A stretch of DNA of 27,498 nt from Solirubrobacterales bacterium (lineage in GTDB: Bacteria; Actinomycetota; Thermoleophilia; Solirubrobacterales; 70-9), in NCBI GenBank assembly GCA_036279555.1, contig DASUIY010000059.1:1-27498 (forward strand), read 5' to 3'. Numbering within the stretch: position 1 is the first letter of the stretch; each line of letters starts with the position of its first letter. The notes beneath the pieces were generated by a model. That model was given only the letters and a program-made list of their open reading frames with translations. It was not told the DNA's origin and made no database searches. Both the position numbers and the translations under genes were made by a program. Positions 3,242 to 23,550 of the stretch are shown here, piece after piece.

Positions 3242-3290
3242 GCCGACGGGCCGATTCCGGACGCTATGCGTCCGTTTTAGTCCCGTCGGC
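3242..3290. repeat. Palindromic element, family 1, asymmetric intergenic copy
   Basis: GCCGACGGG(3242-3250)/CCCGTCGGC(3282-3290) and CGGACGC/GCGTCCG stems around a TAT loop. The first 19 nt are identical to 8902-8920. Confidence 0.85.
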
Positions 3291-3304
3291 GGGGAGGTTG
3301 GGGG

Positions 3305-4306
3305 GTGACGCGGGCAGACGTGTGCGCGGCGATCCTCTGGACGGGGGCGACCCTCTACGCGGTCTTCGGCGGCGCCGACTTCGGCGCCGGCTTCTGGGAC
3401 CTGATCGCGGGCGGCGCGGAGAAGGGGAAGCGCCCGCGGGCGCTGATCGAGCGCTCGCTGACGCCGGTCTGGGAGGCCAACCACGTCTGGCTGATCTTCA
3501 TCCTCGTGGTCCTCTGGACCGCTTTCCCGGAGGCCTTCGGCGCGATCATGTCGACGCTTTACGTGCCGCTCACCCTGGCAGCCTTCGGCATCGTCCTGCG
3601 CGGCGCCGGCTTCGCCTTCCGCGAGTCGATCCGCTCCGTGGAGGCGCAACGGGCGCTGGGCGCCACCTTTGCCATCTCCTCCGTACTCACCCCGTTCTTC
3701 ATGGGCACCGTGGTCGGCGCGATCGCCGACGGCAACGTCCCCGCCGCGGGGAACGGCGACGCCTTCTCCAGCTGGCTGCAGCCGCTGCCGCTGCTCACCG
3801 GCGGCATGTTCGTCGCCAGCGGCGCCTATCTCGCTGCGGTCTTCCTCGTCGCTGACGCGCGCCGCTCGGGCAGCGCCGAGCTCGAGGGCTACTTCTCCCG
3901 ACGCGCTCTTGCGGCGGCCGTCTTCGCGGGGGCGTTCGCCGTTGTCGGCCTCTTCGTCCTCCACGCCGACAGCCGCTACGTCTTCGACCGGCTCGTCGAC
4001 CAGGCCCTGCCGCTGGTCGTCGTCTCCGGCCTCTGCGGCCTCGCCGTGCTGGTCATGCTGCTGCGCGGCACCCGCCGCGGGCTGCGCCCCCTCGCGGTCG
4101 GGGCCTTCGTCACCGTGATCTGGGGCTGGGGCGCCGCCCAGTTCCCCTACCTGCTGCCGACCTCGCTGAAGATCTCCGAGTCCGCCGCGCCTCCGGAGAC
4201 GCTGGGCGCGGTGATCGTCGTCTTCCTCGTCGCCGCGGTCGTCGTCCTGCCGGCCCTCGGCCTGCTCTACTGGCTCTCGCAGAAGGAGCTGCTGAGTGGC
4301 GAGTGA
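3305..4306 (+). CDS. cydB: Cytochrome bd ubiquinol oxidase subunit II
   Basis: 333 aa hydrophobic protein with GADFGAG, PVWEANHVWLI, LRGAGFAFR and QFPYLLP motifs, directly after cydA. Confidence 0.93.
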   Translation: MTRADVCAAILWTGATLYAVFGGADFGAGFWDLIAGGAEKGKRPRALIERSLTPVWEANHVWLIFILVVLWTAFPEAFGAIMSTLYVPLTLAAFGIVLRGAGFAFRESIRSVEAQRALGATFAISSVLTPFFMGTVVGAIADGNVPAAGNGDAFSSWLQPLPLLTGGMFVASGAYLAAVFLVADARRSGSAELEGYFSRRALAAAVFAGAFAVVGLFVLHADSRYVFDRLVDQALPLVVVSGLCGLAVLVMLLRGTRRGLRPLAVGAFVTVIWGWGAAQFPYLLPTSLKISESAAPPETLGAVIVVFLVAAVVVLPALGLLYWLSQKELLSGE

Positions 4307-4979
4307 GCCCAGTGCGGTCCGCGCCGTGCTCTTCGACATCGACGGGACGCTGCTCGTGACCGGCGGCGCCGGCGGCCGCGCCTGGCAGCGCGCCTTCGCG
4401 GAACTGCACGGAGTCGATGCCGACATCGCCGAGCACACCGACGCCGGGATGACCGACCCCGAGATCGCCGCGATCGTCTTCCGCGAGGTGATCGGCCGCG
4501 AGGGCAGCCAGGAAGAGCGCGCGAAGGCGATCGGCTCCTACCTCAAGCACCTGCCGGACACCGTCGCCGAGTCTGAGGGCTATCGGGTCATGCCCGGCAT
4601 CGAGGAGCTGCTCGACCGCCTGATCGACGACGGGCTCCTGCTCGGCCTGGTCACCGGCAACATCGAGGCCGCCGCCCACATCAAGCTCGCCCGCGCTCAC
4701 CTCAACCGCTTCTTCAGCTTCGGCGGTTACGGCTCCGATTCTGCCGACCGCACCGAGGTCACCAAGACGGCCTTGCAGCGCGGCGCCCTGGTCTCCGGCG
4801 GCACCCTCGCCGACGGCATCTGCATCGCCGTCGGCGACACCCCCCGCGACGTCAAGGCCGGCCACGGCGCCGGGATCAAGGTCGTCGGCGTGGCAACCGG
4901 CAGCTACTCGGTCGATCAGCTCGAGCAGGCCGGTGCCGACTGGGCGATCGCGGAAGCCCAGGACGGCTTCCCTGTCTAG
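4296..4979 (+). CDS. HAD-superfamily hydrolase (phosphoglycolate phosphatase-like)
   Basis: Motif I FDIDGT, motif II VTGN, motif IV VGDTPRD. Overlaps the end of cydB. Confidence 0.88.
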   Translation: MASEPSAVRAVLFDIDGTLLVTGGAGGRAWQRAFAELHGVDADIAEHTDAGMTDPEIAAIVFREVIGREGSQEERAKAIGSYLKHLPDTVAESEGYRVMPGIEELLDRLIDDGLLLGLVTGNIEAAAHIKLARAHLNRFFSFGGYGSDSADRTEVTKTALQRGALVSGGTLADGICIAVGDTPRDVKAGHGAGIKVVGVATGSYSVDQLEQAGADWAIAEAQDGFPV

Positions 4980-6184
4980 CCGGGCAACGTGCAGCGCGCT
5001 TGGTAAATCGAGAGGAAGCCGGTTTCGAAGCCTCTGCGCGCCATGCGCAGGTACAGACGCCAGACGCGCACCCGTTCCGGCCCGGCGAGCCTGACCGCGT
5101 CGTCGAGGTTCTCGTCCAACCGCCGTGCCCAGTGGCGCAGGGTCTCGGCGTAGTCGGCGCCGAACTCCTCGACGTGGCGGGTGACGAAGCCGGCTCGCTC
5201 CAGCGCCAGGAGCACCCGCGAGAGGTGCAGCGGTTCGGCGTCGGGGAAGACGTAGCGCTCAGAGAACGGCCCCGCCGCGGGGTCGGTGTGGCGGAGGCGG
5301 GCGATGCCGTGGTTGAGCAGCCGCCCGCCCGGCTCCAGCAGCCGCGCCAGGGTCTGCGCGTAGACGTCGATCTGGGCCTCGCCGACGTGCTCGACCATGC
5401 CGATGCTGGAGATCGCGTCGAAGCGCTCGCCGGCCAGGTCGCGGTAGTCCATCACCCGGATCTCGACCCTGTCGGCTACACCCGCGGCCTCGGCCCGCCG
5501 GCGGGCTCGTTCGGCCTGCGGTGGGGAGAGGGTGATGCCGACGACGCTCGCCCCGTGCCGCGTCGCCGCCCAGAGCGGGAAGCTGCCCCAGCCGCAGCCG
5601 ACGTCGAGCACGCGCTCACCCTCCTTCAGCGCCAGCTTGCGGGCGACCATCTCCAGCTTCTCCTCCTGGGCTTCCTCCAGCGTCTCCGCCCCGCGCGAGA
5701 AGATCGCGCAGCTGTAGGTCGTCGAGTCGTCGAGGAAGAGCGAGAAGAACTCGTTGGAGACGTCGTAGTGGTGGCGGACCGCCTCTGCGTCGCGCTCCTT
5801 GCTGTGCCGGCGCCCGCTGGGCCGCAGCTCCGCCGCCGGCCGGCGCGGCGGCCGGCTCAGCCCCGCCGCCCGCACCGTCGCGAGCAGGAGGCGCGCCTTG
5901 TCGGCGCTCTCCAGCGGCGGCGGCTGCCAGTTGTCGAGCAGCTCGATCACGGAGTCGATGTCGTCGACCTCGAGCGCGCCGCTGACGTAGGCGCGGCCGA
6001 GGCCGAGCTGCCCGGGCGCTCGCAGCGCGTGAGCGGCGGCCTTGGGGGAGCGCACGAAGAAGGTGGGCCCGCCTCCGTTCGTCGCCTCCAAACGCGTCCC
6101 GTCCCAGAACTCCACCGAGAACGGTCGCTTGGGAATGCGAGCCTCGATCTCGCGCCGTAGCGGTGCCGTACTGGAGAGCGGCAT
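4976..6184 (-). CDS. cfa: Cyclopropane-fatty-acyl-phospholipid synthase family SAM methyltransferase
   Basis: HYDVSNEFF, TYSCA, VLDVGCGWG, SIGMVEHVG and YVFPD motifs. Start trimmed from the 723-aa ORF to ATG 6184 (MPLSSTAP), because the upstream extension is antisense to the desaturase. Confidence 0.88.
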   Translation of the reverse strand: MPLSSTAPLRREIEARIPKRPFSVEFWDGTRLEATNGGGPTFFVRSPKAAAHALRAPGQLGLGRAYVSGALEVDDIDSVIELLDNWQPPPLESADKARLLLATVRAAGLSRPPRRPAAELRPSGRRHSKERDAEAVRHHYDVSNEFFSLFLDDSTTYSCAIFSRGAETLEEAQEEKLEMVARKLALKEGERVLDVGCGWGSFPLWAATRHGASVVGITLSPPQAERARRRAEAAGVADRVEIRVMDYRDLAGERFDAISSIGMVEHVGEAQIDVYAQTLARLLEPGGRLLNHGIARLRHTDPAAGPFSERYVFPDAEPLHLSRVLLALERAGFVTRHVEEFGADYAETLRHWARRLDENLDDAVRLAGPERVRVWRLYLRMARRGFETGFLSIYQARCTLPG

Positions 6185-6211
6185 GCCCGAAGCATATGAT
6201 CGGTAGAGCCG

Positions 6212-7141
6212 ATGGCAAGTAGTGGACCCCTCCCATCCGATATCCAGCCGGTCGCCAACGAGACCCGCGACCGCATCATCACCGGCCTGGTGACGCTGGT
6301 CCCGTTCGTCGCGATCGGGCTTGCGGCCTGGCAGGTCTGGGGCCAGGCCCTGCACTGGAGCGACGTCTTCCTCTTCCTCGGGATGTACTTCTTCACCGGG
6401 ATCGGGATAACGGTCGGCTTCCATCGCCACCTCACCCACCGCAGCTTCAAGACGACGAAATGGATGCACGGCCTGCTGGGGATCCTCGGGTCGGCGGCGA
6501 TCGAGGGCCCGGTGATCTCCTGGGTCGCCGACCATCGCAAGCACCACGCCTTCTCCGACGAAGAGGGGGACCCGCACAGCCCCCACGTCGATCATGGCCA
6601 GGGCTGGTCGGGCGCGATGCGCGGCCTCTTCCACGCCCACATGGGCTGGCTCTTCATCCACACCCAGCGCGGCAACAAGGAACGGTTCGCGCCCGACCTG
6701 ATCGAGGACCCGGTGATCAGCTGGGTCGACCGCACCTTTCTGCTCTGGGCGATCGGCGGGCTCCTCCTGCCCTTCGCGCTGGGCTGGGTCATCGGCGGCA
6801 CCCTCTTCGCCGCCTTCACCGGCCTGCTCTGGGGTGGCCTGGTCCGCGTCTTCGTCCTGCACCACTTCACCTACAGCATCAACTCGCTCTGCCATGTCTT
6901 CGGCAAGCGCGACTACGAGACGAGCGACGAGTCGCGCAACCTGGCGCTGATCGCGATCCCGACCTTCGGCGAGGCCTGGCACAACAACCACCACGCCTTC
7001 CCGACCTCCGCCACCCACGGCCTCGGCCGCTGGCAGGTGGACGTCTCGGCGATCGTGATCGACAGCCTCGAGCGCGTCGGCCTCGCCTGGGACGTCGTGC
7101 GAGTGTCCCCCGAGCGTCTCGAAGCCAAGATCGCGGCTTAG
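6212..7141 (+). CDS. Acyl-CoA (delta-9-type) fatty acid desaturase
   Basis: Three His boxes: GFHRHLTH, DHRKHH and WHNNHH, plus TM segments. Confidence 0.93.
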   Translation: MASSGPLPSDIQPVANETRDRIITGLVTLVPFVAIGLAAWQVWGQALHWSDVFLFLGMYFFTGIGITVGFHRHLTHRSFKTTKWMHGLLGILGSAAIEGPVISWVADHRKHHAFSDEEGDPHSPHVDHGQGWSGAMRGLFHAHMGWLFIHTQRGNKERFAPDLIEDPVISWVDRTFLLWAIGGLLLPFALGWVIGGTLFAAFTGLLWGGLVRVFVLHHFTYSINSLCHVFGKRDYETSDESRNLALIAIPTFGEAWHNNHHAFPTSATHGLGRWQVDVSAIVIDSLERVGLAWDVVRVSPERLEAKIAA

Positions 7142-7253
7142 GGCCAATCCCGGCAGGGGTTCCGCTTAACTTTTTCGAAAGGCGGCGACTGCTGGCGCTC
7201 GAACCGCGCTCGCGGAAAAGTACAAGACGCTCCACCCCTGCCGGGATTGGCCT
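7141..7253. mobile_element. MITE-like element, 113 bp, 19-bp perfect terminal inverted repeats, TTA on both sides
   Basis: GGCCAATCCCGGCAGGGGT (7142-7160) is the exact reverse complement of 7234-7252. TTA at 7138-7140 and 7254-7256. No ORF inside. Confidence 0.65.
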
Positions 7254-9659
7254 TTACGGTGCTTCTTCTGCCTCGTACCAGTCGACCCAGCCGTTGCAGG
7301 ATTTGCTTAGCGGGACGATCCGGTGCGGCCGGTCGGGGGTCGCGACCAGCTCGCCCAGGGTCGCCTTGCCCGAGTACCCGGTGAGGCGCTGCAGCGTGCT
7401 CGGCTCATCGGCCGTGACGGTGAACCGGACCGCCCCGCCGTCGCTGCGGATCTTCCCGGCGGGCCAGAACTGGCCGTTGCTGGCGAGGCTGATCGTGGTC
7501 GGCCGCTGACCGTCCTGGGCGGCCTTCAGCGGCTGTCGCAGGCCCGGGGCGGAGAGGGTCAGGCCGAAGGGCGAGAAGTACTGCAGCGAGAGGAGCCAGT
7601 CTCCGGCCGGGAGGGCGAGGGCCTGCGATGCGCTCTCGCCGGTCTCCAGCTCCGGTTCGGGGCTCCAGCGCCCCTTGCCGCCGATCGCGGCACCGGGGAA
7701 GAGCGAGGCGCGACCGGGGTTGGCGGTGAGTATCTGCAGCTCGGGAGCTGTGCAATCGGCGTGTGCCGCCGGCTCGGTCCCCTCCAGCAGCACGTGGCGG
7801 TCGGCCGGCAACGGCCCCGTTCTCTTCCAGAGAAGGTATGAGGGCGTCGCCGCGACGCGCCTGAAGCCCCGCGGCGCTTCGCTGTTCCAGGCCGCCCGCC
7901 CGGTGATCACGTAGGGGAAGCGCGCGAGGGTGGCCTGGGAGAAGGAGTCGAAGTCGATCGGGCTGTAGGCGTCGCCGGTGTCGAACGGCTTCTCGGGGCT
8001 GGCGGTGACCTCGGCGTCGGGGAACTCGACCAGCGGCACGTGCGTGTCGGCCCCCATCAGCTCGTGGGCGGCGTAGCGGTCCTGACCCGCGTATAGGACA
8101 GGCTCCCCCTGGACGACGGGCATGAACGCCTGCAGCTCCGCGCCGTGCCCCGGCGGCCCGACCGGCGCGTCCCGCAGCACGAGCAGGCTCGAGTACACGG
8201 CCCCCGCCACGAACGCCACCGCCAGCACCCCCCAGCCAACCCTCGCCACCCCCGCCGATGGGCCGATTCCGGCCGATATTCGGCCGGAATCGGCCCATCG
8301 GCGGCCAAAGGCGCCGCCGAGCTCGAAAAGGAGGGGGCGGATCGCGACGAGCATCGCCAGCGGGGCGGCGATCATCAGCGCCTTGGCCTGGGAGTACTCA
8401 CCACTGGTGGCGAGTGAGGCGAGATAGAGGATCGTGCAGGCAGCGAGCGCGACCGGGATGGAGAACTCCCGTCGTCGCAGCCACCAGGCGGTTCCCAGGA
8501 CGACGGCGAGCACCCCGATCGCGCCCGCCAGGCCGGTCAGGTGTGCGCCTCCGGCCGCGCTGAGCCGGTAGTTGGAGGCCGGCCAGACGCCGAGCGCCTC
8601 CAGCGGCGAGACCGGCCCGTAGGTGTTGGTGCCGGCGACGCGGTTGAAGCCGTGGACGAAGGCGAAGGGCCCGACCAGCATCAGCGTCACCGTCAGGCCG
8701 CCGAGCACGACGATCGCCAGCAGCAGCTTCGGCCGCAGCAGGGTGCGGGCCAGCCGGGCCGGCCTCAGCTCGGCACGGATCTCGGGCACGGTCGCCGCCC
8801 AGAAGACGAGGATCGCAACCGGCCAGGCAAGCCCGGCGAAGCTGTAGGAGAAGAAGATCCCCCCGGCGAGCGCCAGCGGCACCAGCACCCACCACCACCC
8901 CGCCGACGGGCCGATTCCGGTCCATATTCGACCGGAATCGGCCCGTCGGCGGTCGAGGTCGAAGAGGTAGACGGCGAAGGCGAGGACGAAGAGGGCCTCG
9001 GCGGTCTCCTTGAAGGTGCCCTGGGCGTAGTAGGAGGCGCCGAGGTAGGTGATCGCCACCAGCGTCGCGGCTGCCACCCGGCGGCCGGGCCCGAGGTCGC
9101 CGAGGGCCACGAGCGCGGTCAGCGCGGTCAGCACCCCTATCGCCAGGATCTCTCCGACGAATGCCTGGCCGAGGCCGATGCCCGGCAGCACGGCGACCGT
9201 GTCGGCGAGCGCGTGGGGCCCAAGCGGATAGCCCGCTTCCGGCGTCGGGCCGAGGCCGCTGCGCAGCCACTCGGCCCAGGCCAGGTGCAGCCCGAGGTCG
9301 TTGTTGAAGCCGACGCCCAGCAGCCCCCAGCGCCCGCTGATCGCAAAGGGGATCGAGAGGACCAGGGCGACGACGAAGGCGACGAGGATGCCCAGCCAGA
9401 TCGAGCCCTCGGTGCGTCCGGGGCGCCGCCAGAGCACCAGCGCCGCCACGGCGACCAGGGCGGTCGCGCCCAGCGCCGCGCTGGTCGCGTGCCCCGGGGC
9501 CCGGGCGAGGAAGCCCGTGACCGTGATCATCGCCCCGAAGCCGACCGCAGGCGCCAGCCAGCTGCGCGAGCCGCCCTCCCCCGCGAGGCTGAGGATTGCG
9601 CGTCCCACCAGCATGGAGGCGGCGCAGATCAGCGCCGCCGCGACGTAGGTCCCGATCAT
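7254..9659 (-). CDS. Polytopic membrane protein with C-terminal extracytoplasmic domain (possibly GT-C-like glycosyltransferase; function uncertain)
   Basis: 801 aa with about 12-14 hydrophobic segments, an early NNDLGLH loop and a soluble C-terminal region. The GT-C call rests on topology only. Confidence 0.75.
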   Translation of the reverse strand: MIGTYVAAALICAASMLVGRAILSLAGEGGSRSWLAPAVGFGAMITVTGFLARAPGHATSAALGATALVAVAALVLWRRPGRTEGSIWLGILVAFVVALVLSIPFAISGRWGLLGVGFNNDLGLHLAWAEWLRSGLGPTPEAGYPLGPHALADTVAVLPGIGLGQAFVGEILAIGVLTALTALVALGDLGPGRRVAAATLVAITYLGASYYAQGTFKETAEALFVLAFAVYLFDLDRRRADSGRIWTGIGPSAGWWWVLVPLALAGGIFFSYSFAGLAWPVAILVFWAATVPEIRAELRPARLARTLLRPKLLLAIVVLGGLTVTLMLVGPFAFVHGFNRVAGTNTYGPVSPLEALGVWPASNYRLSAAGGAHLTGLAGAIGVLAVVLGTAWWLRRREFSIPVALAACTILYLASLATSGEYSQAKALMIAAPLAMLVAIRPLLFELGGAFGRRWADSGRISAGIGPSAGVARVGWGVLAVAFVAGAVYSSLLVLRDAPVGPPGHGAELQAFMPVVQGEPVLYAGQDRYAAHELMGADTHVPLVEFPDAEVTASPEKPFDTGDAYSPIDFDSFSQATLARFPYVITGRAAWNSEAPRGFRRVAATPSYLLWKRTGPLPADRHVLLEGTEPAAHADCTAPELQILTANPGRASLFPGAAIGGKGRWSPEPELETGESASQALALPAGDWLLSLQYFSPFGLTLSAPGLRQPLKAAQDGQRPTTISLASNGQFWPAGKIRSDGGAVRFTVTADEPSTLQRLTGYSGKATLGELVATPDRPHRIVPLSKSCNGWVDWYEAEEAP
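8252..8304. repeat. Palindromic element, family 1, in-frame coding copy 1
   Basis: Perfect 25-bp stem (8252-8276/8280-8304) with a TAT loop. Encodes RRWADSGRISAGIGPSA on the minus strand. Confidence 0.95.
8900..8952. repeat. Palindromic element, family 1, in-frame coding copy 2
   Basis: Perfect 23-bp arms (8900-8922/8930-8952), centre CATATTC. Encodes RRRADSGRIWTGIGPSA on the minus strand. Confidence 0.95.
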
Positions 9660-9679
9660 CAGGGGCGGAAACTATGGCA

Positions 9680-9698
9680 GCGGCGTCAGCGACGCCGC
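9680..9698 (-). terminator. GC-rich hairpin downstream of the MBL hydrolase gene, possible terminator
   Basis: GCGGCGTC-AGC-GACGCCGC, an 8-bp perfect stem just past the stop at 9705. No clear U-tract. Confidence 0.35.
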
Positions 9699-9704
9699 CT
9701 CGGC

Positions 9705-10418: not shown

Positions 10419-10460
10419 GATGAGATCACCCTAGCGGCCCGTCTCGTAACGTTGGCGCTG

Positions 10461-10613
10461 ATGCCAACCGCCTGGAAAACCGGGATGGTCGTTCTGGTCG
10501 CCTGCCTGCTGGCGTCGATGGCGATCGCGATCTTCCGTCTCGCCACGACCCCGACCGAGATCCTCGGCGACGGTTTCCGCGGGCTGCCCGTTCGCGCCCA
10601 CGACTCCCGTTAG
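10461..10613 (+). CDS. Putative small single-pass membrane protein (50 aa)
   Basis: MPTAWKTGMVVLVACLLASMAIAIFRLATTP...: one clear hydrophobic helix filling the gap between the MBL gene and usp. Confidence 0.45.
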   Translation: MPTAWKTGMVVLVACLLASMAIAIFRLATTPTEILGDGFRGLPVRAHDSR

Positions 10614-10649
10614 TATCGGCCGCGTTCAGCGACCGAGCAAGGAGGCGGC

Positions 10650-11093: not shown

Positions 11094-11188
11094 GTCTCTG
11101 GCGGGCGGGTCCTGTCGTGAAGGAGGACTCCTCGTCCTCGCAAGCTGCGGGCGAGGAGCCCACCTCCACGCCACCCGCCCGACAGACG
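11094..11188. repeat. Long imperfect hairpin between convergent usp and S8 genes (REP-like or bidirectional terminator)
   Basis: Outer CGGGCGGGT(11102-11110)/ACCCGCCCG(11173-11181), inner CTCCTCG/CGAGGAG and CGCA-AGC-TGCG. Confidence 0.55.
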
Positions 11189-11189
11189 T

Positions 11190-12629: not shown

Positions 12630-13097
12630 ATGGGGAGCGATGCCTTGCAGGATCGGCACGAGCGGTTGATGGCCCTTGCGATCGACCGGGCCCGTCAGGC
12701 CGAGCGCCACGGCGACGTGCCGATCGGCGCCGTCGTCGCCCGCGAGGGCGAGCCGCTGGCCGCCGCCGGCAACGAGCGCGAGCTTCGCCGCGACCCCACC
12801 GCCCATGCCGAGATGCTCGCGATCCGCGCTGCCGCGGAGGCCCTGGGCGGCTGGCGCCTCCCCGGCACGACCCTCTACGTCACCCTCGAGCCCTGCGCGA
12901 TGTGCGCCGGCGCGATCGTCCTGGCGCGCATCCCGGCGGTCGTCTACGGCGCCGCCGACCCGAAGGCGGGTGCGGCCGGCAGCGTCCTCGACGTCCTCGC
13001 CGAGCCCGCCCTCAACCACCGCCCCGAGGTCGTCGGCGGCGTGCTCGAGGCCGAGTGCGCCTCGCTGCTGTCGGAGTTCTTCGCCGCGCGCCGTTAG
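12630..13097 (+). CDS. tadA: tRNA adenosine(34) deaminase
   Basis: DVPIGAVV, DPTAHAE, LYVTLEPCAMCAGA, DPKAGA and LNHRP motifs. Confidence 0.93.
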   Translation: MGSDALQDRHERLMALAIDRARQAERHGDVPIGAVVAREGEPLAAAGNERELRRDPTAHAEMLAIRAAAEALGGWRLPGTTLYVTLEPCAMCAGAIVLARIPAVVYGAADPKAGAAGSVLDVLAEPALNHRPEVVGGVLEAECASLLSEFFAARR

Positions 13098-13252
13098 GGC
13101 CTCTCCCGATAGGTGAGCACACCCCTGGATACGGCCCAGGCACGGCGCGGATTCGGCCCCGTCGCGAATCCCACATGGCGCTGCCATGCGGAATCCGCGC
13201 CGTGACCGGCCCTGAACCGTCCCCGCGGCGCGCCACCTATCGGGAGAGGCCC
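13097..13252. mobile_element. MITE-like element, 156 bp, 19-bp perfect terminal inverted repeats
   Basis: GGGCCTCTCCCGATAGGTG (13097-13115) and CACCTATCGGGAGAGGCCC (13234-13252), flanked by TTA and TGA. Internal 14-bp IR at 13141-13154/13191-13204. Confidence 0.65.
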
Positions 13253-13260
13253 TGAGTCAA

Positions 13261-13275: not shown

Positions 13276-13365
13276 GGAGAGGTGTCCGAGTGGCTTAAGG
13301 AGCGCGACTGGAAATCGCGTGGGCGGGGTTAACCCGCCTCGTGGGTTCGAATCCCACCCTCTCCG
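13276..13365 (+). tRNA. tRNA-Ser(GGA)
   Basis: Acceptor GGAGAGG/CCTCTCC, anticodon arm CGCGA-CTGGAAA-TCGCG, long variable arm, T-arm GTGGG-TTCGAAT-CCCAC, G73. CCA not encoded. Confidence 0.96.
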
Positions 13366-13446
13366 TTCAGCGCCTCCGCCTAAGAGCAGCTCCTGTGTGA
13401 GTCCGATCTCATACCGGGTGATTACCGAAAGCTAAGCTTGCGTTGA

Positions 13447-15894
13447 ATGGCTAGGGAGACGCGCAGGGTAGAGTCGCCAGGGCTGGACGCGCACGGCAGT
13501 TCGCCGAGGGGCTGGGCGGCCGCGTTCGTCCTGCTGACGTTGGCCTCAGTAGCGCTGGCCCACTCTTCGGTCAGCCAGGCAGTCGAAGGGGTCACTCTAA
13601 GAGCGGACGCGAAGGGGGCGGACAACGATCTGATCGCCAGCGTGTTCGTCGGCACCTCCGCCGGGCGGATCTGCGCCGGCACGGTGCGCCACGCGGGCAA
13701 GCAGATTCGCCTGCCCGAACTGCAAACCGGCAAAAGCGGCAACGCCCGCTGGCGCTGGAAGATCGGCGCGGGCGTGCCGGCCGGACGGTGGGAGGTGTCG
13801 GTCCGCTGCCAGCTGGCGAACGGGCCGGCGACCGAGCACACGAGCTTCAAGGCGTCGGGAACCGGTCGGCGCGGCGACAGCAACCTCGTCGCACCCGGCT
13901 CAATGACCAAGAAGTCGCTGCACCACGCCAAAGGTTCGAAGGGCGGGCGAGGCGGCGGAGAAGAAGAAGAAAACGGCTATCCCAAAGGCCTGTGCACGTG
14001 GTGGGCTAGGTTGAAGAGACCCGACATCCCCGTCTTCCCGGGGCCAGCGGGGGATGCGCGCAACTGGGCCGAGAGCGCCCGGCGCGCGAAACCGAGGTTC
14101 TCGCTCGGCACGGTGGCGAAGCCGGGAGCGATCGTCGTCTTTCAGCCGGGCCAGGCGGGCGCCGGCAGGTTCGGGCATGTCGCCTACGTCGAGCGCGTCA
14201 ACGCCTCCGAGATGACCATCTCGGAGGCGAACTTCCGCAATACCAAACCAGGACACGAAAGGCCGATGCGCTGGCGCGGCCGGGGCTTCGACTTCATCTA
14301 CGCGAGGGAGGAGCGGATAGTGGATCCGCCGGCTCCGCCGAACAGCCAGCGCTTCCGCGTCTACCGGACCTGCGCGAACGGGAAGTGTGGGTTGCCGCAG
14401 CGTCAGGGCCCCGGCCTGAGCTTCGGCACCGTCGGCAGGCCGCTGCCCGACGATAGCGCGGTCGACGTCGTCTGCCAGACGCGAGGTGACCGCGTGTCCG
14501 GCTTTGACGCCACCTCGACCAACGTCTGGGACCGGCTCGCCAACGGGGCCCACGTCTCCGACTACTTCGTCGACACCCCCGGCAAGAACGACCAGTTCTC
14601 GGTCCAGATCCCGAGCTGTGCCTCGCTGGGCGCCGCCGCGGAGGTTGAGATCCCGCACGTCGCGACGGTCGCCTTGAGCGTTCCCGGCAACGGGCAGGTC
14701 CTGAGTGGGGACGTGGCGGTGCGGGCGTCCTCCGACGCGCCGGAAGTGCGCTTCGAAGCCTTCTATTCGGATACGCCTGGAGTAGAGGGAACGGCTCGCT
14801 GGCATCCGCTCGGCGTCGACAGCAATCCCGGCGACGGCTTCGAGCTGAGCTGGGACACCACCGCCGTGCCGAACCAGGGCCTGCGCCGAGAAGGGACCGT
14901 GCGGGTGTCCGCGACCGCGGTCGACGCCGCTACGGCCGTTGCCGACAGGCAGGACTTCAGGCACGTGGCTATCGCCAATGCCGATCCGGCTGGCGACTTC
15001 GCCTACCACGTCTTCGGGACCTGCCTCGACGCCCTCTGCACGCTGAAACGGCGTGCCGGCCCGGGCTTCTCCAAATACCCGCCGATCGATTCCGTCGCCG
15101 AGGGCGCGACGGTGAAAATCGCCTGCCAGGCCGCCGGTGAGACCGTCAGCGGCGGCGTCGGGACGAGCAACGTCTGGAACCAGCTGGACGACGAAAGCTG
15201 GGTCGCCGATCTATATATCGACACCCCCATCGCGGGCAGCTTCAGCCCGCCGATCCCCCGCTGCGCGACCGTCCCGCCCCCTCCCACGCCGACCATTGCC
15301 CTGACGGCGCCGGCAAGCGGCGGGATGGTCAGCGGAACGGTCGAGGTCGCGGCGACCTCCGACGCGCCGGGGGTGCGGTTCGAAGCGTTCTACTCGGACA
15401 CGCCCGGCGTAAGCGGGACGGCCCTGTGGCGCCAGCTCGGCGACGATCTCTCGCCCGGCGACGGCTTCGAGCTGAGCTGGGACACCACCGCCGTGCCGAA
15501 CCAGGGGCAGGCGAGCCAGAGCACCGTTCGGGTGCGCACGGTTGCGCTCGACTACCAGGGGGGCGCGACCGGCGTTCAGGAGGTGGGCCGGGTGAACGTG
15601 TCCAACCCGAGCCCCGACGGCAGCTACGCCTACCACGTATACGGCACCTGTGGCAGCGACGCCTGCTTCGTCAACGTGCGCAGCGGTCCGAGCCAGACGA
15701 CCTACCCGGTTATCTACACGAAGGACGAGGGTGAGCGGCTCGACATCGCCTGCCAGGCGCACGGGCAGAGCGTCTCCAATGGCGTCATCAGCTCGGACAT
15801 CTGGAACAAACTGATCGACGGCGGCTGGGTGACCGACTTGTACGTGGACACTCCGGTCGCGGGCGACTTCAGCCCGCCGATTCCCCAATGTTGA
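13447..15894 (+). CDS. Exported CHAP-domain peptidoglycan hydrolase with three SH3b-like and two Ig-like repeats
   Basis: N-terminal hydrophobic segment. CHAP Cys/His motifs YPKGLCTWWA, FGHVAYVE and SEAN. Three copies of (F/Y)xVxxTC...CQxxG...WxxLxxxxxVxDxxxDTP alternate with two SGxVxVxAxSDAPxVRFEAFYSD...WDTTAVPNQG domains. Confidence 0.8.
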   Translation: MARETRRVESPGLDAHGSSPRGWAAAFVLLTLASVALAHSSVSQAVEGVTLRADAKGADNDLIASVFVGTSAGRICAGTVRHAGKQIRLPELQTGKSGNARWRWKIGAGVPAGRWEVSVRCQLANGPATEHTSFKASGTGRRGDSNLVAPGSMTKKSLHHAKGSKGGRGGGEEEENGYPKGLCTWWARLKRPDIPVFPGPAGDARNWAESARRAKPRFSLGTVAKPGAIVVFQPGQAGAGRFGHVAYVERVNASEMTISEANFRNTKPGHERPMRWRGRGFDFIYAREERIVDPPAPPNSQRFRVYRTCANGKCGLPQRQGPGLSFGTVGRPLPDDSAVDVVCQTRGDRVSGFDATSTNVWDRLANGAHVSDYFVDTPGKNDQFSVQIPSCASLGAAAEVEIPHVATVALSVPGNGQVLSGDVAVRASSDAPEVRFEAFYSDTPGVEGTARWHPLGVDSNPGDGFELSWDTTAVPNQGLRREGTVRVSATAVDAATAVADRQDFRHVAIANADPAGDFAYHVFGTCLDALCTLKRRAGPGFSKYPPIDSVAEGATVKIACQAAGETVSGGVGTSNVWNQLDDESWVADLYIDTPIAGSFSPPIPRCATVPPPPTPTIALTAPASGGMVSGTVEVAATSDAPGVRFEAFYSDTPGVSGTALWRQLGDDLSPGDGFELSWDTTAVPNQGQASQSTVRVRTVALDYQGGATGVQEVGRVNVSNPSPDGSYAYHVYGTCGSDACFVNVRSGPSQTTYPVIYTKDEGERLDIACQAHGQSVSNGVISSDIWNKLIDGGWVTDLYVDTPVAGDFSPPIPQC
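14827..15506 (+). repeat. Exact 53-bp direct repeat within the CHAP gene (14827-14879 and 15454-15506)
   Basis: CCCGGCGACGGCTTCGAGCTGAGCTGGGACACCACCGCCGTGCCGAACCAGGG occurs twice, 627 bp (209 codons) apart. Confidence 0.9.
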
Positions 15895-16628
15895 GCGAAG
15901 GGGTCCCCGGCGGCGAAGATCTCGGTTTCTACCAGGTGGCCGCGTCGGTCTTCGTGGTGCTGTTGCTGACTGGGGTCGCGGGGGAGATCAGAGACCTGCG
16001 CGGCAGGAAGACCGGCGACGGCGAGCCGGACCTGGAGATCTCTCGCGCGTATTCGCTCGGGGTGGCATTGGTGTTGTCGGCCCTGCTGCTGGGCGAGCTG
16101 CTGGCCTTGCTCGTCCTGCTTGAACCGCCGCCGAGCGATTTTCAGCGGATGGCGGTCGGCATCTGCCTGGCCGTCTCCGTGCTCGGCGTGCCGGCGCTCG
16201 TCGTCCTCGCCATGTGGGAGGAGCGCCTGCGGCGATTGAGACGATCGCTGGTGGCGGTTTTCGCCGGGATTGCGGCGATACTCGCGGTAGTGGGCATCTA
16301 CCTGGCCAGCGTCGCGTTGACTGACCCGCCTCCGAACACCTACCACGTCTACGGCACCTGCGCGAGCGGGCGCTGTGGCCTGAATGAGCGCAGCACGCCG
16401 AGCACGAAGGCGCGCCGACTACGGCAACTGCACGACGGCGACGAGATCACGATCGTCTGTCAGACCATAGGCGCGGAAGTCCCCGCCCCTCGTGGCGGCA
16501 GCTCGATCGTCTGGAACCGGCTGAGGTCTGGCGGTTACGTCACGGACCTCTACGTCGACACGCCGCCCCTGGGAAGCGATATCCCGCTCTGCGGGAATCG
16601 GGCCGAAGGCGGACGCCCGCGCGGCTAG
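15888..16628 (+). CDS. Membrane protein (about 4 TM) with C-terminal SH3b-like domain
   Basis: Hydrophobic N-terminal two thirds, then YHVYGTCASGRCGL...IVCQTIG...WNRLRSGGYVTDLYVDTP, the same domain that is repeated in the upstream gene. TTG start overlaps the upstream gene's end. Confidence 0.75.
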   Translation: MLSEGVPGGEDLGFYQVAASVFVVLLLTGVAGEIRDLRGRKTGDGEPDLEISRAYSLGVALVLSALLLGELLALLVLLEPPPSDFQRMAVGICLAVSVLGVPALVVLAMWEERLRRLRRSLVAVFAGIAAILAVVGIYLASVALTDPPPNTYHVYGTCASGRCGLNERSTPSTKARRLRQLHDGDEITIVCQTIGAEVPAPRGGSSIVWNRLRSGGYVTDLYVDTPPLGSDIPLCGNRAEGGRPRG

Positions 16629-16630
16629 GG

Positions 16631-16663
16631 CTCGTGGGGTCGAATCCACCCTCCCCGCTTCAG
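16631..16663 (+). repeat. Degenerate copy of the tRNA-Ser 3' end (att-like)
   Basis: CTCGTGGGGTCGAATCCACCCTCCCCGCTTCAG aligns to 13338-13370 at 30 of 34 columns. Confidence 0.75.
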
Positions 16664-16899
16664 ACGCGTCGCCTATTAGGACCCCGGGAACAACGCGAGG
16701 CTGGTCTTAAAGCTCGCCCCGTAGGGCGTTGCGGACAAGCACGCAGTCACGAGCCTCGGCGCGTAGGCGCCGAACATTTGCGCCACATGCGGGAACGCTT
16801 GAGTTTGCGAGCGGTTGAGCCGCGAAAACGGTCCTGAGCTCCGTCACGCGGGGCGATCCGATATTGACCACGCCAGAGAGGGTCAAATTCGGACGCACG

Positions 16900-18462: not shown

Positions 18463-18543
18463 GCAGCGAGTCTAGGAGTGAGGGCTGAGTCAAGACGAGA
18501 CGGGCTCGAGAATCGTCCGGCTGGCTCCATTCCTACCTGGCTG

Positions 18544-19728: not shown

Positions 19729-19852
19729 CGAGCGCCGTATCCTGACGCTCGGCGGGAGCGGGTGTGGCCTGCACGCACCGTCTGCCCGGACGGGCTCGGG
19801 TTCTTGGCGCCGGCCGAGTCGAGCCGGTCAAGCCTGGATCAGGCGGGTTCGG

Positions 19853-21793
19853 TCAGGCGGCCGCGGTCAGGCGACCCCCGCCTGCGGTCCTCGCCGGCAG
19901 CGGCACGACGATCGCGTCGCGCTCCGGGGTCGGCGCCGAGGGGCGGTGGCCGCGCAGGCACTCGTGGCTGCAGACGACGTAGCACCACTCCATCAGGCGC
20001 ATGCGCGAGCCGGGGTCGATGTCGGCGATCGTCGCGCCGACCAGCCAGCGGCCCTCCGCCTCGCGGCAGGAGCGGACCTCGACCTGGGCCGCGACCTCGT
20101 GCGTCGCGCCGGCCGCGTCGCGCAGCTCGAGCAGGACGAGTGGGAGCGCGCCGACCTCCAGCGGCGCCTCCATCACCAGGCCCACGCCGGCGGAGCTGGC
20201 GTCGACCAGGCGTCCGGGGACGTGTCCCTCCTCGGAGAAGCACTGGGCGGGGGCGTCGCCCTCGAAGCGGTAGACGAGGCGCCGCTGCCGGCGCCGCCCG
20301 ACCGCCAGCAGCGTGCGGGCGATCCGGCGCAGCTCGATCAGCCCCAGCAGCGGCACGATCACGGCGGCGACGCCGGGCAGGTCCGGCAGCGGCCCGGCGC
20401 CGGCGAGGTCGAGCAGGCGCATCGCCGTGCCCAGGCCCAGCAGCACGGCGCAGGCGAGGACGAGATGCAGTCTGCGCACGGCCTCGATCCCGCCCCCGTC
20501 CGTCCCCTGCTTCGGAGTTACCTTGAAGGCGGTGCGGCTGGGGCGCACGATGCAGCGCAGCGCCCGCGTGTAGATCTCCATCGTCAGCAGCTCGTAGTGG
20601 GCGGTCTCGCCGATCTTCATGTAGCCGCGCGCCAGGGCCGTGCCGGCGCTGAGGTTGAGCGCCACCGCCGGCAGCCACAGCGCCGCCAGGGCGAGGACGC
20701 TGATCTTCATCGGCATCGCTCCCGTCCACAGCACCAGCCCCAGCGTCGCCAGCAGCAGCAGGCGCATCGGCGGCGCCAGGTAGGCGGCGAGGCTGACGAA
20801 GTAGGAGAGCCGCTGCAGCGGGCTGATCTCGCTCGCCCGCAGCGGCGACTCGGGAAGGGTGAAGACGGCGAGGTTGCCGCGCGCCCAGCGGTCGCGCTGC
20901 AGCAGGTAGCCGTCGAGGTCGTGGGGCGCCAGGCCCTGGACCAGCACCTCGTCGTGGTAGCGGCTGCGCCAGCCGTTGCGCTGCATGCGGATCGTCGTGT
21001 GGAAGTCCTCGGCGATCGTCTCGGTGGCGACGCCGCCGATCTCGAGCAGCGCCCGGCGGCGGATCAGCGCCGCCGAGCCGCACCAGTAGACCGCGCCGTG
21101 GCGGTCCTTGCCGGGGCAGACGACCCGGTAGAAGAGCGACTGCTCGTGCCGGCCGACGACGTAGTGCTGGACCGAGTCGTGGTTGAAGAAGTCGTGCGGG
21201 GTCTGCACCAGCCCCATCCGCTCGTTGTCGAAGTAGCCGACGAGCGCGTCGAGCGCGTCCGGCATCGGCACGTGGTCGGCGTCGAGCATCAGCACCAGCT
21301 CGCCCTCGGTCCGGCCCAGCGCCGCGTTGATGTTCCCCGCCTTGGCGTGCGAGTTGTCGGGCCGGGTCAGGTAGCGGGCGCCGGCCGTCCGCGCCAGCTC
21401 CGCCATCTCGGGCCGCCGGCCGTCGTCGAGCAGGTAGGTGGTGTGGGGGTAGGTGAGCGCCCCGCAGCCGGCAAGCGTCGCCGCCACCACCTCGGTCGGC
21501 TCGTCGTAGGTGCAGACGTAGACGTCGACGGAGCGCCCGGGCGCCGCCGCCGGCCGCACGGCCGGCCGTCGCGACCACGAGAACCAGGCCAGCGTCGCCA
21601 GGGCCCAGAGCCCGTAGACCTCCGTCGCCAGCAGCATCGCGAAGGCGACTGGGCTGGCCCCTTCGCCGCTCCAGCCGACCCGCCAGGTCAGATAGCCGAG
21701 CCCCCAGAGCAGCGCCGCGACCGCCAGCAGGCGCAACAGGACGGGATGCCGGTCGAAGAAGCGCCCGAGCCGCGTCTGCTCGCTGCCTTGCAT
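19853..21793 (-). CDS. Cellulose-synthase-like (BcsA-type) GT2 glycosyltransferase with C-terminal PilZ domain
   Basis: DDGRR, HAKAGNIN, DADH, QTPHDFFN, TIAEDF and QRDRW motifs, followed by RRRQRR and DASSAG (PilZ). Start trimmed to ATG 21793 because the longer ORF runs through a tRNA. Confidence 0.88.
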   Translation of the reverse strand: MQGSEQTRLGRFFDRHPVLLRLLAVAALLWGLGYLTWRVGWSGEGASPVAFAMLLATEVYGLWALATLAWFSWSRRPAVRPAAAPGRSVDVYVCTYDEPTEVVAATLAGCGALTYPHTTYLLDDGRRPEMAELARTAGARYLTRPDNSHAKAGNINAALGRTEGELVLMLDADHVPMPDALDALVGYFDNERMGLVQTPHDFFNHDSVQHYVVGRHEQSLFYRVVCPGKDRHGAVYWCGSAALIRRRALLEIGGVATETIAEDFHTTIRMQRNGWRSRYHDEVLVQGLAPHDLDGYLLQRDRWARGNLAVFTLPESPLRASEISPLQRLSYFVSLAAYLAPPMRLLLLATLGLVLWTGAMPMKISVLALAALWLPAVALNLSAGTALARGYMKIGETAHYELLTMEIYTRALRCIVRPSRTAFKVTPKQGTDGGGIEAVRRLHLVLACAVLLGLGTAMRLLDLAGAGPLPDLPGVAAVIVPLLGLIELRRIARTLLAVGRRRQRRLVYRFEGDAPAQCFSEEGHVPGRLVDASSAGVGLVMEAPLEVGALPLVLLELRDAAGATHEVAAQVEVRSCREAEGRWLVGATIADIDPGSRMRLMEWCYVVCSHECLRGHRPSAPTPERDAIVVPLPARTAGGGRLTAAA

Positions 21794-21835
21794 GCGGGAG
21801 CATCGGCCTTGCGCGCCGCCCCCTTGAGTTGCGCC

Positions 21836-21841
21836 TAGAAT
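21836..21841 (+). promoter_or_regulatory. Putative -10 element (TAGAAT) of tRNA-Ser(CGA)
   Basis: Near-consensus -10 hexamer 18 nt upstream of the tRNA. Confidence 0.4.
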
Positions 21842-21859
21842 CGGTCTCCAGCGTGTCCC

Positions 21860-21946
21860 GGAGGGGTGCCGGAGTGGTTGAACGGGGCAGTCTCGAAAAC
21901 TGTTGGCGTCGCAAGGCGCTCGTGGGTTCGAATCCCACCCCCTCCG
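21860..21946 (+). tRNA. tRNA-Ser(CGA)
   Basis: Acceptor GGAGGGG/CCCCTCC, anticodon loop CTCGAAA, long variable arm GGCGTC-GCAA-GGCGC, T-loop TTCGAAT, G73. Confidence 0.95.
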
Positions 21947-22044
21947 CTTCTCAACTGCCCTTAAGATGCCGAACCTCTGAAGGAACCGTCGTGTTTGAGA
22001 CGATGGGGCGCATGGGACGGAAAGCGAACAGAGGGAGATGCGCG

Positions 22045-22530
22045 GTGGGGAAGAAGAGCTTCGGCCTGTTGGGTGCGGTTGTCCTGGCGATGGCGATGCT
22101 GGCGCTGCCGGCACAGGCGGACGACGCGGAACGCCAGGCCTACAAAGAAGCCGTCGAGCCGATCTGCAAGGCCAACACGCAGGCCAACGAACGGATCCTC
22201 AAGGGGGTCCGCGGCAAGGTCAGAGCCGGCAAGCTGAAGGCGGCGGCGGGCCAGTTCTCGCGTGCCGCCACCGCCCTGCGCAAGACGCACAAAGAACTGA
22301 AGGCCGTTCCCCAGCCCCCGGCGGACGAGACCAAGCTAGCCAAGTGGCTGAAGTACGTCGAAATCGAGGCGAGCCTCTTCCAGAGGACCGCCAAGAAGCT
22401 CAACGCCGGGGACAAGAACGGGGCGCTGGCGATGGTGATCAAGCTCGAACACAACGCCAACCTCGCCAACAACCAGGTGCTCGGCTTCGAATTCCGCTAC
22501 TGCCGCTTCGAACCGTCCAAGTTCACCTAG
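22045..22530 (+). CDS. Secreted helical hypothetical protein
   Basis: GAGGGA RBS, GTG start, signal peptide KKSFGLLGAVVLAMAMLALPAQA, two Cys, amphipathic helices. Confidence 0.75.
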   Translation: MGKKSFGLLGAVVLAMAMLALPAQADDAERQAYKEAVEPICKANTQANERILKGVRGKVRAGKLKAAAGQFSRAATALRKTHKELKAVPQPPADETKLAKWLKYVEIEASLFQRTAKKLNAGDKNGALAMVIKLEHNANLANNQVLGFEFRYCRFEPSKFT

Positions 22531-22552
22531 GCCGGGTCCGGTCCAGCCGCTC

Positions 22553-22596
22553 GATTGAACGATTGACCCACGTATAGGGGGGTCAATCGTTCAATC
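22553..22596. repeat. Palindromic element, family 2, copy A (contains the stop codon of the AbiEi/DUF559 gene)
   Basis: 17-bp perfect arms GATTGAACGATTGACCC (22553-22569)/GGGTCAATCGTTCAATC (22580-22596), centre ACGTATAGGG. Confidence 0.9.
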
Positions 22597-23529
22597 TCCT
22601 CGCTTGCGCGCAAGGGCTGCCGTTTGCCTCAACCTGGCGCGGGCGTAACCAGGTTCGAAGCGGATCTGCGCGTGCGAGAAGCGCAGGGGAAGCAGGCCGG
22701 AAGCCACGTGGGCCTGGTCCCTCAGGAGTCCCCGCGTCTGCTGCGAAGGGGTGCGGTGATAGCGCAGCCCGTCAGTCTCGACGACGATGCCGAGCTCCGG
22801 CCAGTTGAAGTCGACTTCGAAGCCGTTGACCCGGGCTTTCGTCTCCGGCTCCGGAAGACCGGCCGCCCGGGCCAGCGGCCGGAAGCGCAGCTCCAGGTCG
22901 GAGTCGCTCAAACGGAAGGTGCGTCGATCGAGGATCGCTCGCAGCAGCGCGACTCCCGGCTGCCCGCCGTGACGCTCGAGTGCCGCGCGCAGCGTCTCGG
23001 GATCGACCCGGTCGAGCTTGTCGGCCTCGTTGACCGCGCGCTCCAGCTGCATCGGTCGCAGTCGGGTCGCCTCGTCGATCAGCGTGCGGGCCGGGCCGGT
23101 TACCGGAACGCCTTCGTGCGCGGTCAGCTCCTCCGGCAGCAGGGCAGTGCGCCGGTGCACGCGAATCCCGGCGTGGCGGCGGCGGATCGCGGCAGGCACC
23201 GAGACTTCGATCAACCCCTGCGACTCCGCGCCGAAACCCCACAGGGCCGCGGCGCTGTCGTGGCTCAGCACCGCCTCTGGGCCACAGGCCAGCGCTGCCG
23301 CCATCCACCGCCCCAGCCTGCTCAGCTGCGGCCTGCCGACCGCGTATACCCCTCGCCAGACCGGGTGCAGCCGTCCGGTGGCGATCCGCCTCTCGATTTG
23401 GCGCGCCCCGAGCCCCATCTCCAGTAGCTGCCTTCGCGCCACCACACCGTGCTGGCGGTTCACCAGGGCCCATATCTCTGCGTCCCGACCCCGGCGATTA
23501 TCCGGCGACCGGTCGATTGACCCACCCAT
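22591..23529 (-). CDS. AbiEi-antitoxin-like N-terminal domain plus DUF559/Vsr-like PD-(D/E)xK endonuclease domain protein
   Basis: N-terminal QHGVVARRQLL...GRLHPVWRGVYAVG and VLSHDSAAALWG. C-terminal SDLELRF...VDFNWPELGIVVETDGLRYH...RD...GLLPLRF. Exact start uncertain. Confidence 0.85.
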   Translation of the reverse strand: MGGSIDRSPDNRRGRDAEIWALVNRQHGVVARRQLLEMGLGARQIERRIATGRLHPVWRGVYAVGRPQLSRLGRWMAAALACGPEAVLSHDSAAALWGFGAESQGLIEVSVPAAIRRRHAGIRVHRRTALLPEELTAHEGVPVTGPARTLIDEATRLRPMQLERAVNEADKLDRVDPETLRAALERHGGQPGVALLRAILDRRTFRLSDSDLELRFRPLARAAGLPEPETKARVNGFEVDFNWPELGIVVETDGLRYHRTPSQQTRGLLRDQAHVASGLLPLRFSHAQIRFEPGYARARLRQTAALARKRGD

Positions 23530-23550
23530 ACGGTGGTAAAGGGTTCAGCG
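23507..23550. repeat. Palindromic element, family 2, copy B (degenerate; contains the predicted ATG of the AbiEi/DUF559 gene)
   Basis: Ungapped match to copy A at 30 of 44 nt, including an identical CGATTGACCCAC. Residual stem CCACC/GGTGG around CATAC. Confidence 0.7.

Follow-up and report, generated by a model that had tools for sequence, protein, structure and literature searches.

Hairpin repeat families paired with predicted AbiEi-Vsr/DUF559-type nuclease genes in a Solirubrobacterales genome

The DNA analysed here is a contig of 27,498 nucleotides (C59; "the window" means this whole stretch) from the 2.25-Mb assembly of a Solirubrobacterales bacterium (403 contigs, 69% G+C), and it carries dispersed long palindromes, two of which bracket a gene for a predicted nuclease of 312 amino acids. 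We found that the genome contains at least seven families of hairpin repeats of 45-60 bp and that the five palindromes of the window that an earlier note had singled out belong to two of them, F1 (copies at 3242, 8252, and 8900) and F2 (copies at 22553 and 23507). Nuclease paralogs are bracketed by palindromes of their own family, repeat abundance across the genus tracks the cognate paralog specifically, and solo copies are discrete, polymorphic inserts, many of them in frame within genes or at stop/start junctions. The explanation that we favor, with a probability of about 0.58, is that the genome harbors several paralog-specific partnerships of repeat and enzyme, each family being paired with its own AbiEi-Vsr/DUF559 nuclease paralog, in a manner resembling the pairing of repetitive extragenic palindromes (REPs) with REP-associated tyrosine transposases (RAYTs).

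Repeat copies were gathered with nhmmer and regular expressions. The features of the window on which the argument rests are listed below, the palindromes and the cassette without strand.

3242-3296: F1 palindrome of the asymmetric subtype (left arm GATTCCGG, right arm CCGTTTTAG), from an nhmmer match and fold
7254-9659, minus strand: gene for an 801-amino-acid polytopic membrane protein with no Pfam family, carrying two in-frame F1 copies in variable loops
8252-8304: F1 palindrome of 53 nt, in frame in 7254-9659, where it encodes RRWADSGRISAGIGPSAG
8900-8952: second F1 palindrome, in frame in 7254-9659, where it encodes RRRADSGRIWTGIGPSAG
16857-16893: degenerate palindrome of a third family (TCCGATATTGACC...GGTCAAATTCGGA), of the CATCCGA(C/T)ATTGACC type that flanks the nuclease paralog on contig C317
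22531-23598: whole cassette (3' palindrome, gene, 5' palindrome, and G-rich box), an indel of ~1.07 kb between a secreted-protein gene and a tRNA-Thr gene
22553-22596: F2 palindrome directly 3' of the nuclease gene, whose TGA stop (22591-22593) lies in the outer stem
22591-23529, minus strand: gene for the 312-amino-acid protein with AbiEi-like and Vsr/DUF559-type nuclease parts, from Pfam, profile search, and fold match
23507-23550: F2-like palindrome at the 5' end of the nuclease gene, with the ATG (23527-23529) in its loop and the first residues encoded by its right arm
23555-23567, minus strand: G-rich box GGGGGCAGAGAAC (gene strand), just upstream of the 5' palindrome

Re-reading the sequence bore out all five of the palindromes first described, in position and in letters. 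A sixth, at 16857-16893, had been missing from that list; it stands just downstream of a decayed tRNA-Ser 3' fragment. The copy at 3242, together with a G-rich tail resembling a Shine-Dalgarno (SD) sequence, makes up the whole 64-nt gap between cydA and cydB, and the copy at 23507 is a direct repeat of that at 22553, CGATTGACCCAC being identical in both.

Nuclease paralogs and the palindromes that bracket them

The first ~200 residues of the 312-amino-acid protein match the Pfam families AbiEi_4 and AbiEi_1 (PF13338, PF09407), and their fold matches the AbiEi antitoxin 6y8q (Foldseek E = 1e-5) and Rv2827c/1zel (E = 1.5e-4). In the AlphaFold2 model of the whole protein (predicted local distance difference test score 86), the last ~95 residues fold like the homing endonuclease I-Bth0305I (3r3p; template modeling score [TM] 0.82) and the DUF559 protein 3hrl (TM 0.75), and a profile built from the paralogs matches the same 3hrl entry in the PDB (E = 0.0011). 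No variation was seen among 11 paralogs at D240, E251, D253, or H258. We interpret the protein as a predicted fusion of an AbiEi-type winged-helix DNA-binding module to a Vsr/DUF559-type PD-(D/E)XK nuclease domain. Its gene is neighbored by the secreted-protein gene and tRNA-Thr; no AbiEii (DUF1814) partner gene was found beside 22591-23529, no Pfam family was found in the adjacent open reading frames (ORFs), and NCBIfam gave no match for either of the two proteins searched.

The genome contains seven nuclease paralogs, on contigs C59 (the window), C74, C185, C30, C342, C163, and C317. All seven have a long palindrome at their start and most have a related palindrome just past the stop codon. 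The C74 paralog has F1 copies on both sides, as the window gene has F2 copies, and the C185 paralog has at its 5' end a copy of a third family, F3, while the C30, C342, C163, and C317 paralogs carry minor palindrome types that are also present as solos. The link that the earlier note had drawn between the coding and intergenic repeats of the window and the pair flanking the nuclease gene is supported; C74 joins F1 to a nuclease gene in the way that the window joins F2. Where the frame was traced (C59, C342, C163, and C317, the last with a GTG start), the loop of the palindrome contains the start codon; in C74 the ATG of the palindrome is out of frame. Each family has its nuclease gene in single copy and solo copies numbering up to 77 per genome.

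The same layout of gene and palindrome was observed in 11 relatives, with a palindrome of its own in each lineage. At 93 related loci, the flank 5' of a gene was compared with its 3' flank, and the two resembled each other more than control flanks did (median local alignment score 14 versus 7.5; p = 7e-16). Local alignment was used for this comparison because many of the palindromes are imperfect, which also accounts for the low yield of a strict palindrome scanner (23 5' and 35 3' palindromes at 96 loci).

Five of the seven paralogs (C59, C317, C30, C342, and C185) have a G-rich box, GGGGGAGA(A/G), in the 200 nt upstream, compared to 0.16 per kb genome-wide; it stands immediately 5' of the 5' palindrome, in relatives as well. 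Its distance from the start codon, 39-65 nt in four of these five (15 nt in C30), is too great in those four for an SD sequence, and as a promoter it was rejected when no convincing -10 or -35 element was found. DnaA boxes were sought in the same 200 nt, and none was present in six of the seven paralogs; C317 has one match with a single mismatch at -184.

Repeat copy number follows the cognate nuclease gene

We compared repeat abundance with the presence of the cognate gene in 41 genomes of the genus, which are kin rather than independent samples and were compared with no phylogenetic correction. F1 ranged from 0 to 64 copies per genome and F3 from 0 to 77, and a reversed-pattern control for these two counts gave 0 matches in every genome. 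F1 was present in 10-64 copies in the 11 genomes where the C74 paralog has an ortholog (at least 58% identity), compared to a median of 2 in the 29 genomes lacking one (Mann-Whitney p = 8.5e-6). Similarly, the nine genomes in which the C185 paralog has an ortholog (at least 69% identity) had 18-77 F3 copies, and the 31 without one had a median of 0 (Mann-Whitney p = 2.8e-6). For F2, four or more copies of the strict pattern were found only in genomes G000, G037, and G045, the only ones with an ortholog of the window gene (P0002) at 78% identity or higher.

The association is specific, as demonstrated by discordant genomes that have one gene and one repeat family. Those with the F1 gene only had F1/F3 counts of 42/1 (G004), 10/0 (G018), 23/0 (G032), and 24/0 (G051), and those with the F3 gene only had counts of 0/27 (G047) and 2/18 (G052). 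These results show that repeat abundance tracks the cognate paralog specifically. Co-occurrence across genomes, which the earlier note had put forward as a check, was found in that copy number follows the nuclease gene, in a paralog-specific form and not as one gene serving all families.

Insertion sites, polymorphism and turnover

The cassette at 22531-23598 is present in G000, G037, and G045, with identical layout in the orthologous cassettes of G037 and G045, and the site is empty in G033, G035, G046, G044, and G051, no solo F2 copy being found at the empty tRNA-Thr sites. A contig from a related strain joins 22530 directly to 23599; the related-strain comparison used assembled contigs, not reads of one population, and reveals variants rather than active excision. 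This clean indel, the resemblance of the C-terminal domain to I-Bth0305I, and the direct palindrome copies on either side of the gene, as would result if both arms of a cut solo primed repair, would all suit a free-standing homing-endonuclease gene that targets the palindrome, break repair leaving the gene between two palindromes and the solos being landing pads spread by other means. We nevertheless regard pure homing as improbable: the gene is single-copy per family despite 10-77 potential landing pads and is itself not spreading, and the empty tRNA-Thr sites have no solo, which together argue against it, and the spread of the palindromes would be left unexplained.

Where the cydA-cydB junction is empty, stop and start overlap as NTGA. 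An F1 insert of 58-68 nt with an SD-like G-rich tail stands there in 12 genomes, and an F3 insert in one. Comparing G000 with G033, whose CydB proteins are 94% identical, the outer stems and the tail at the junction are shared and the inner 27 nt are unrelated. F1 copies often have such a tail, GGGGAGGTTGGGGG (3297-3304 in the window; also at the junctions L177, L184, and L188 of relatives), which here forms an SD-like sequence for cydB. In some genomes a mirror copy of the tail on the left (CCCCCAACC) lengthens the palindrome to ~80 bp, with a new CydA C-terminus encoded by the left end. NTGA was considered as a target-site duplication here and rejected as unproven: it fails in four genomes in which the left extension of the element replaces the end of cydA.

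Orthologs of the 801-amino-acid membrane protein have, at both F1 sites, other F1 variants, two quite different palindrome families, or nothing. A related strain has 113 other nucleotides at the 8252 site, and the inner part of the second copy (8912-8938) is rewritten. Among four F2 solos, two are common to G000, G037, and G035, one to G000, G037, and G045, and one to G000 and G037 only, with compensatory changes in both stems at orthologous sites. Each of the four sites is empty in at least one genome, and three of them hold F1, a CATCCGAC-type palindrome, or another palindrome elsewhere. The trinucleotide GAA flanks one F2 site and not the others, and was rejected as a target-site duplication. 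Different families occupied one site in different genomes at six of the seven sites examined, and in-frame positions within long ORFs with high G+C at third codon positions account for ~13 of the 28 F1 copies and 11 of 39 for F3. Together, these comparisons show that the solo copies are discrete, polymorphic inserts, and the re-use of one site by different families, along with the exchange of the whole inner 27 nt among closely related genomes, points to a repair-based copying mechanism.

AbiEi antitoxins of the AbiE system bind inverted repeats in their own promoter. Considering the fold match to 6y8q and the palindrome at the start of all seven paralogs, the proteins could instead be transcription factors with the start palindrome as operator and the dispersed copies as binding sites or inert decoys, the nuclease playing no role in their spread. 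We judge this no likelier than pure homing, since it does not explain the second copy past the stop codon, the swings from 0 to 77 copies between congeners, the in-frame copies in unrelated genes, or the replacement of families at fixed sites and the invariant nuclease residues. Autoregulation as such is compatible with the repeat-enzyme partnership and is included in it.

Less probable still is that the AbiEi-Vsr proteins are anti-phage or repair nucleases, for example processors of cruciforms or hairpins, that are kept because of the palindromes and do not spread them. Their AbiEi ancestry and the PD-(D/E)XK fold that they have in common with Vsr repair nucleases fit such a role, and co-occurrence gives no direction; however, the bracketing of each gene by its own palindrome and the start codon in the loop would be unexplained, and the origin of the family-specific expansions would be left open. 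That the palindromes are ordinary terminators or REP-like structures in permissive sites, with nuclease genes sharing the same junk-tolerant places, is very improbable: several copies do lie past stop codons, where terminators are expected, and none matches an Rfam family, but the pairing with paralogs is family-specific both in this genome and in relatives, the co-occurrence is specific, with association statistics that weigh heavily against this reading, and many copies lie in coding regions.

Under the favored explanation, the winged helix-turn-helix module would bind both arms of the cognate palindrome, and binding at the gene's own 5' copy would probably repress the gene, as in AbiE. The nuclease domain would cut at or near a palindrome, and repair or rejoining would place a copy of the cognate palindrome at a new site or at one already occupied. 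If the copying is carried out by the cognate enzyme, each family would therefore persist and turn over only while that enzyme is present, as do REP doublets (REPINs) with RAYTs.

Several observations weigh against this explanation. We infer binding, cutting, and mobilization of the palindromes by the nuclease, all three steps alike. The Pfam match to DUF559 is weak and below threshold (E = 0.02). The identity cut-offs for cognate orthologs (58%, 69%, and 78%) were chosen after the score gaps had been seen, and the co-occurrence was counted among related genomes with kinship uncorrected. Many F1 copies are present in genomes with no clear ortholog (21 in G010, 22 in G044, 18 in G036, and 15 in G035), and G035 keeps F2-like copies at orthologous sites with no cassette, in an assembly that is 77% complete. 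Causality could run in either direction, as the gene might depend on the palindromes. Moreover, no consistent target-site duplication or fixed target sequence was found in seven comparisons of filled and empty sites.

Shared geometry and relation to known systems

F1 is present in ~28 copies in the genome and has a conserved outer stem (CCGCCGACGGGCC / GGCCCGTCGGCGG) enclosing a variable inner 27 nt, in which either GATTCCGG or one of TGAAACGG, TAAAACGG, and GAAAGCGG is found; the dominant type in other congeneric species is TAAAACGGGAC or GAAATCCTCGG. The asymmetric subtype, with different inner types in its two arms, is found at 3242 and also on C95, C74, and C362. F2 has five strict and ~15 loose copies, with a conserved inner stem (TTGACCC..GGGTCAA) and a variable outer one (TGAACGA, GTGGTCGA, or GAGAG). 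A de novo scan revealed 121 long palindromes in the genome, most of them assignable to families, including F3 (TTCCGGTGCGCC.., ~40 copies), further families of the types CGCTGACTTCGTC.., GGCGTGTCTGAG.., GGCGACTT.., and CATCCGACATTGACC.., and an unrelated family with a TAATTA center. The one match to a palindrome in an Rfam search of the whole window (E <= 1) was a chance, miRNA-like one at 22553-22596. A separate repeat family of ~15-23 copies, all outside the window (C172:3645, C103, C107, C155, C158, C362, and others), has the form GGATACTCAAA-N-GC-rich stem-CTAATTAG center-stem-TTTGAGTATCC, with a geometry unlike that of the nuclease-linked families.

One geometry recurs in all seven profiled families. 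From the outside inward, it consists of an outer stem of 10-13 bp that is rich in GC, an AT-rich patch that lies 9-13 nt (8-11 nt in F3) from the center, an inner stem that is likewise GC-rich, and the TA-rich center itself, often ATAT or CATATG. The patch is TT at 11-12 nt from the center in six of the seven. The arms of F1, F2, and F3 covary, with two to four Watson-Crick pair types per position and none of 300 arm shuffles reaching the observed pairing. Two positions in F3, 9 and 12 nt from the center, are paired in only ~30% of copies, below the shuffled expectation, which means that the F3 element has a polarity and is not a simple hairpin; one F3 sub-family has non-complementary inner halves, TTATCCAGG..ATA..GGGGGAAAA (e.g., C136:852, C103:5403, and C373:1994). 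The common geometry probably reflects a common mode of binding and cutting by the protein family. A tentative extension, which we consider possible but doubtful, is that paralog-specific nucleases recognize this geometry and cut palindromes of any family, repair then overwriting the inner module or the whole element with the cognate sequence. Fixed sites such as protein loops and stop/start junctions would in that case be serially rewritten by competing families, a new mode of competition among intragenomic mobile DNA, distinct from mobility based on HUH enzymes, DDE transposases, or recombinases.

The earlier note had proposed that the palindromes of the window form one family with the fixed architecture CGATT-N8-TAT(A)-N8-AATCG. 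The literal motif is indeed above background. CGATT-N19/20-AATCG has three matches in the window (N19 at 8264-8292 and 8912-8940, N20 at 22560-22589) compared to 0.03 expected, with 0 of 100 shuffles reaching three, and 12 matches in the genome compared to ~1.06 expected analytically from the genome's own observed 5-mer frequencies; the copies at 3242 and 23507 keep CGATT (at 3251 and 23514), the 8-nt spacing, and a TAT or CATA center and have a degenerate right half. Once the copies were aligned, both half-sites were found in only 5 of 28 F1 and 4 of 15 F2 copies, and in 0 of 61 copies of four sister families. The GATT position in F1 is equally often TGAAA, TAAAA, or GAAAG, and in F2 CGA is part of the variable outer stem, TTGACC alone being conserved. 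When F1 and F2 consensus arms are aligned at their centers, they have no conserved base in common, only AT-richness at equal distance from the center. The half-sites are therefore not fixed elements of either family. The two families do belong to one superfamily of hairpin repeats, by geometry and by their link to nucleases, but they are separate, and the shared CGATT is a sub-family accident on a real common geometry, of which CGATT-N8-TAT gave a glimpse. Recognition of both by one dimeric protein or processing enzyme through fixed half-sites, for which the motif enrichment and the equally placed AT patch could be cited, is largely refuted by the alignments and retains next to no likelihood, given that the conserved stem is the outer one in F1 and the inner one in F2 and that each family tracks a different paralog across the genomes.

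REP/REPIN-RAYT systems ("REPtrons") are repeat-gene systems of Proteobacteria (PMC3116915, PMC3337134, PMC5581495). The families described here are similarly short palindromic repeats scattered in tens of copies per genome (F1 ~28, F3 ~40, and F2 ~5-15 in 2.25 Mb; 0-77 in congeners); the associated gene is single-copy and has its own type of repeat on its flanks, a genome holds several such pairs, repeat abundance depends on whether the cognate gene is present, and inheritance is largely vertical. RAYTs are HUH/Y1 tyrosine transposases of the IS200/IS605 kind, whereas the enzyme here is of the AbiEi-winged-helix/Vsr-type PD-(D/E)XK class; being unrelated, it must use a different chemistry. The data fit a partnership like that of REP and RAYT, on an unrelated enzyme. 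Unlike REPs, the repeats have no unpaired GTAG tag, contain CGTC only inside the paired F1 stem, and are often intragenic and in frame; unlike REP doublets, they are single long nested hairpins, one of which holds the start codon of the gene in its loop, and they occur in the phylum Actinomycetota.

Rickettsia palindromic elements lie in frame within protein-coding genes, sometimes twice per gene, and CGTC repeats have no known dedicated transposase, the survey of GTAG/CGTC repeats listing no actinobacterial families (PMC3733652). The in-frame copies described here, two of them in the 801-amino-acid membrane protein, resemble the Rickettsia elements functionally only, and they differ from these and from CGTC REPs in size, sequence, and taxon and in having a dedicated candidate enzyme. 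The fold of the N-terminal ~200 residues is that of type IV AbiE AbiEi proteins (6y8q; Rv2827c, 1zel), and by analogy the protein may bind an inverted repeat at its own start. It differs from that system in that no AbiEii nucleotidyltransferase gene adjoins it, a nuclease domain is fused to it, and its repeat is genome-wide rather than confined to a promoter. The C-terminal catalytic fold and acidic/His motif resemble those of the Vsr/DUF559 clan (I-Bth0305I 3r3p; NGO0050 3hrl; PMC3424549), from which nuclease activity is predicted; unlike members of that clan, the gene is not in an intron or intein, its context does not suggest T/G mismatch repair, and it is AbiEi-fused and paired with a repeat. 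Mycobacterial interspersed repetitive units and miniature inverted-repeat transposable elements (MITEs) are likewise short non-autonomous inserts at operon junctions where stop/start coupling is kept (as at cydA-cydB), with outer stems resembling terminal inverted repeats. In contrast to them, the copies are not tandem, and neither a parent insertion sequence with a DDE transposase nor a target-site duplication was found.

We did not find this pairing of repeat and nuclease described in the literature searched. What the window adds is a test of the shared architecture, family-specific co-occurrence with discordant genomes, the frequency of in-frame copies, an operon-junction insert, and site re-use with swaps of inner modules. 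If the partnership is real, Actinomycetota would have their own counterpart of REPIN-RAYT, built on a PD-(D/E)XK nuclease and an antitoxin-type DNA-binding module. A very large group of unnamed "DUF559/AbiEi-domain" genes (5-13 per genome in the genus; at least 548 relatives in reference genomes) would also gain a function, and long hairpin repeats that break metagenome-assembled genomes and add peptide inserts to membrane proteins would be explained. Several orthogonal protein-DNA recognition pairs, naturally diversified, would be found in each cell. The partnership also bears on the identity of the enzyme that mobilizes RAYT-less palindromic repeats, such as CGTC-type REPs and the Rickettsia elements.

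Other features of the window were noted alongside. The 3' end of tRNA-Ser (T-arm and acceptor) is present in three copies, at 13338-13385, 16631-16678, and 21919-21966, two of them within tRNA-Ser genes; the orphan fragment at 16631 is consistent with an old integration scar bounding the segment from 13.4 to 16.6 kb. Related-strain contigs have far lower depth over 13686-16841. An ORF of 815 amino acids at 13447-15894 contains an internal duplication (14663-15552) with a period of 627 bp, in which 263 nt are 72% identical and shorter blocks also match. Two MITE-like elements with GGGCC..GGCCC terminal inverted repeats lie beside stop codons at 7138-7256 and 13094-13255 and are unrelated to the palindrome families. 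The tRNA gene at 25363-25458, identified as tRNA-Ala(agc) by ARAGORN and matched by the Rfam tRNA family at 66 bits, is 96 nt in length, unusually long for a tRNA other than Ser or Leu.

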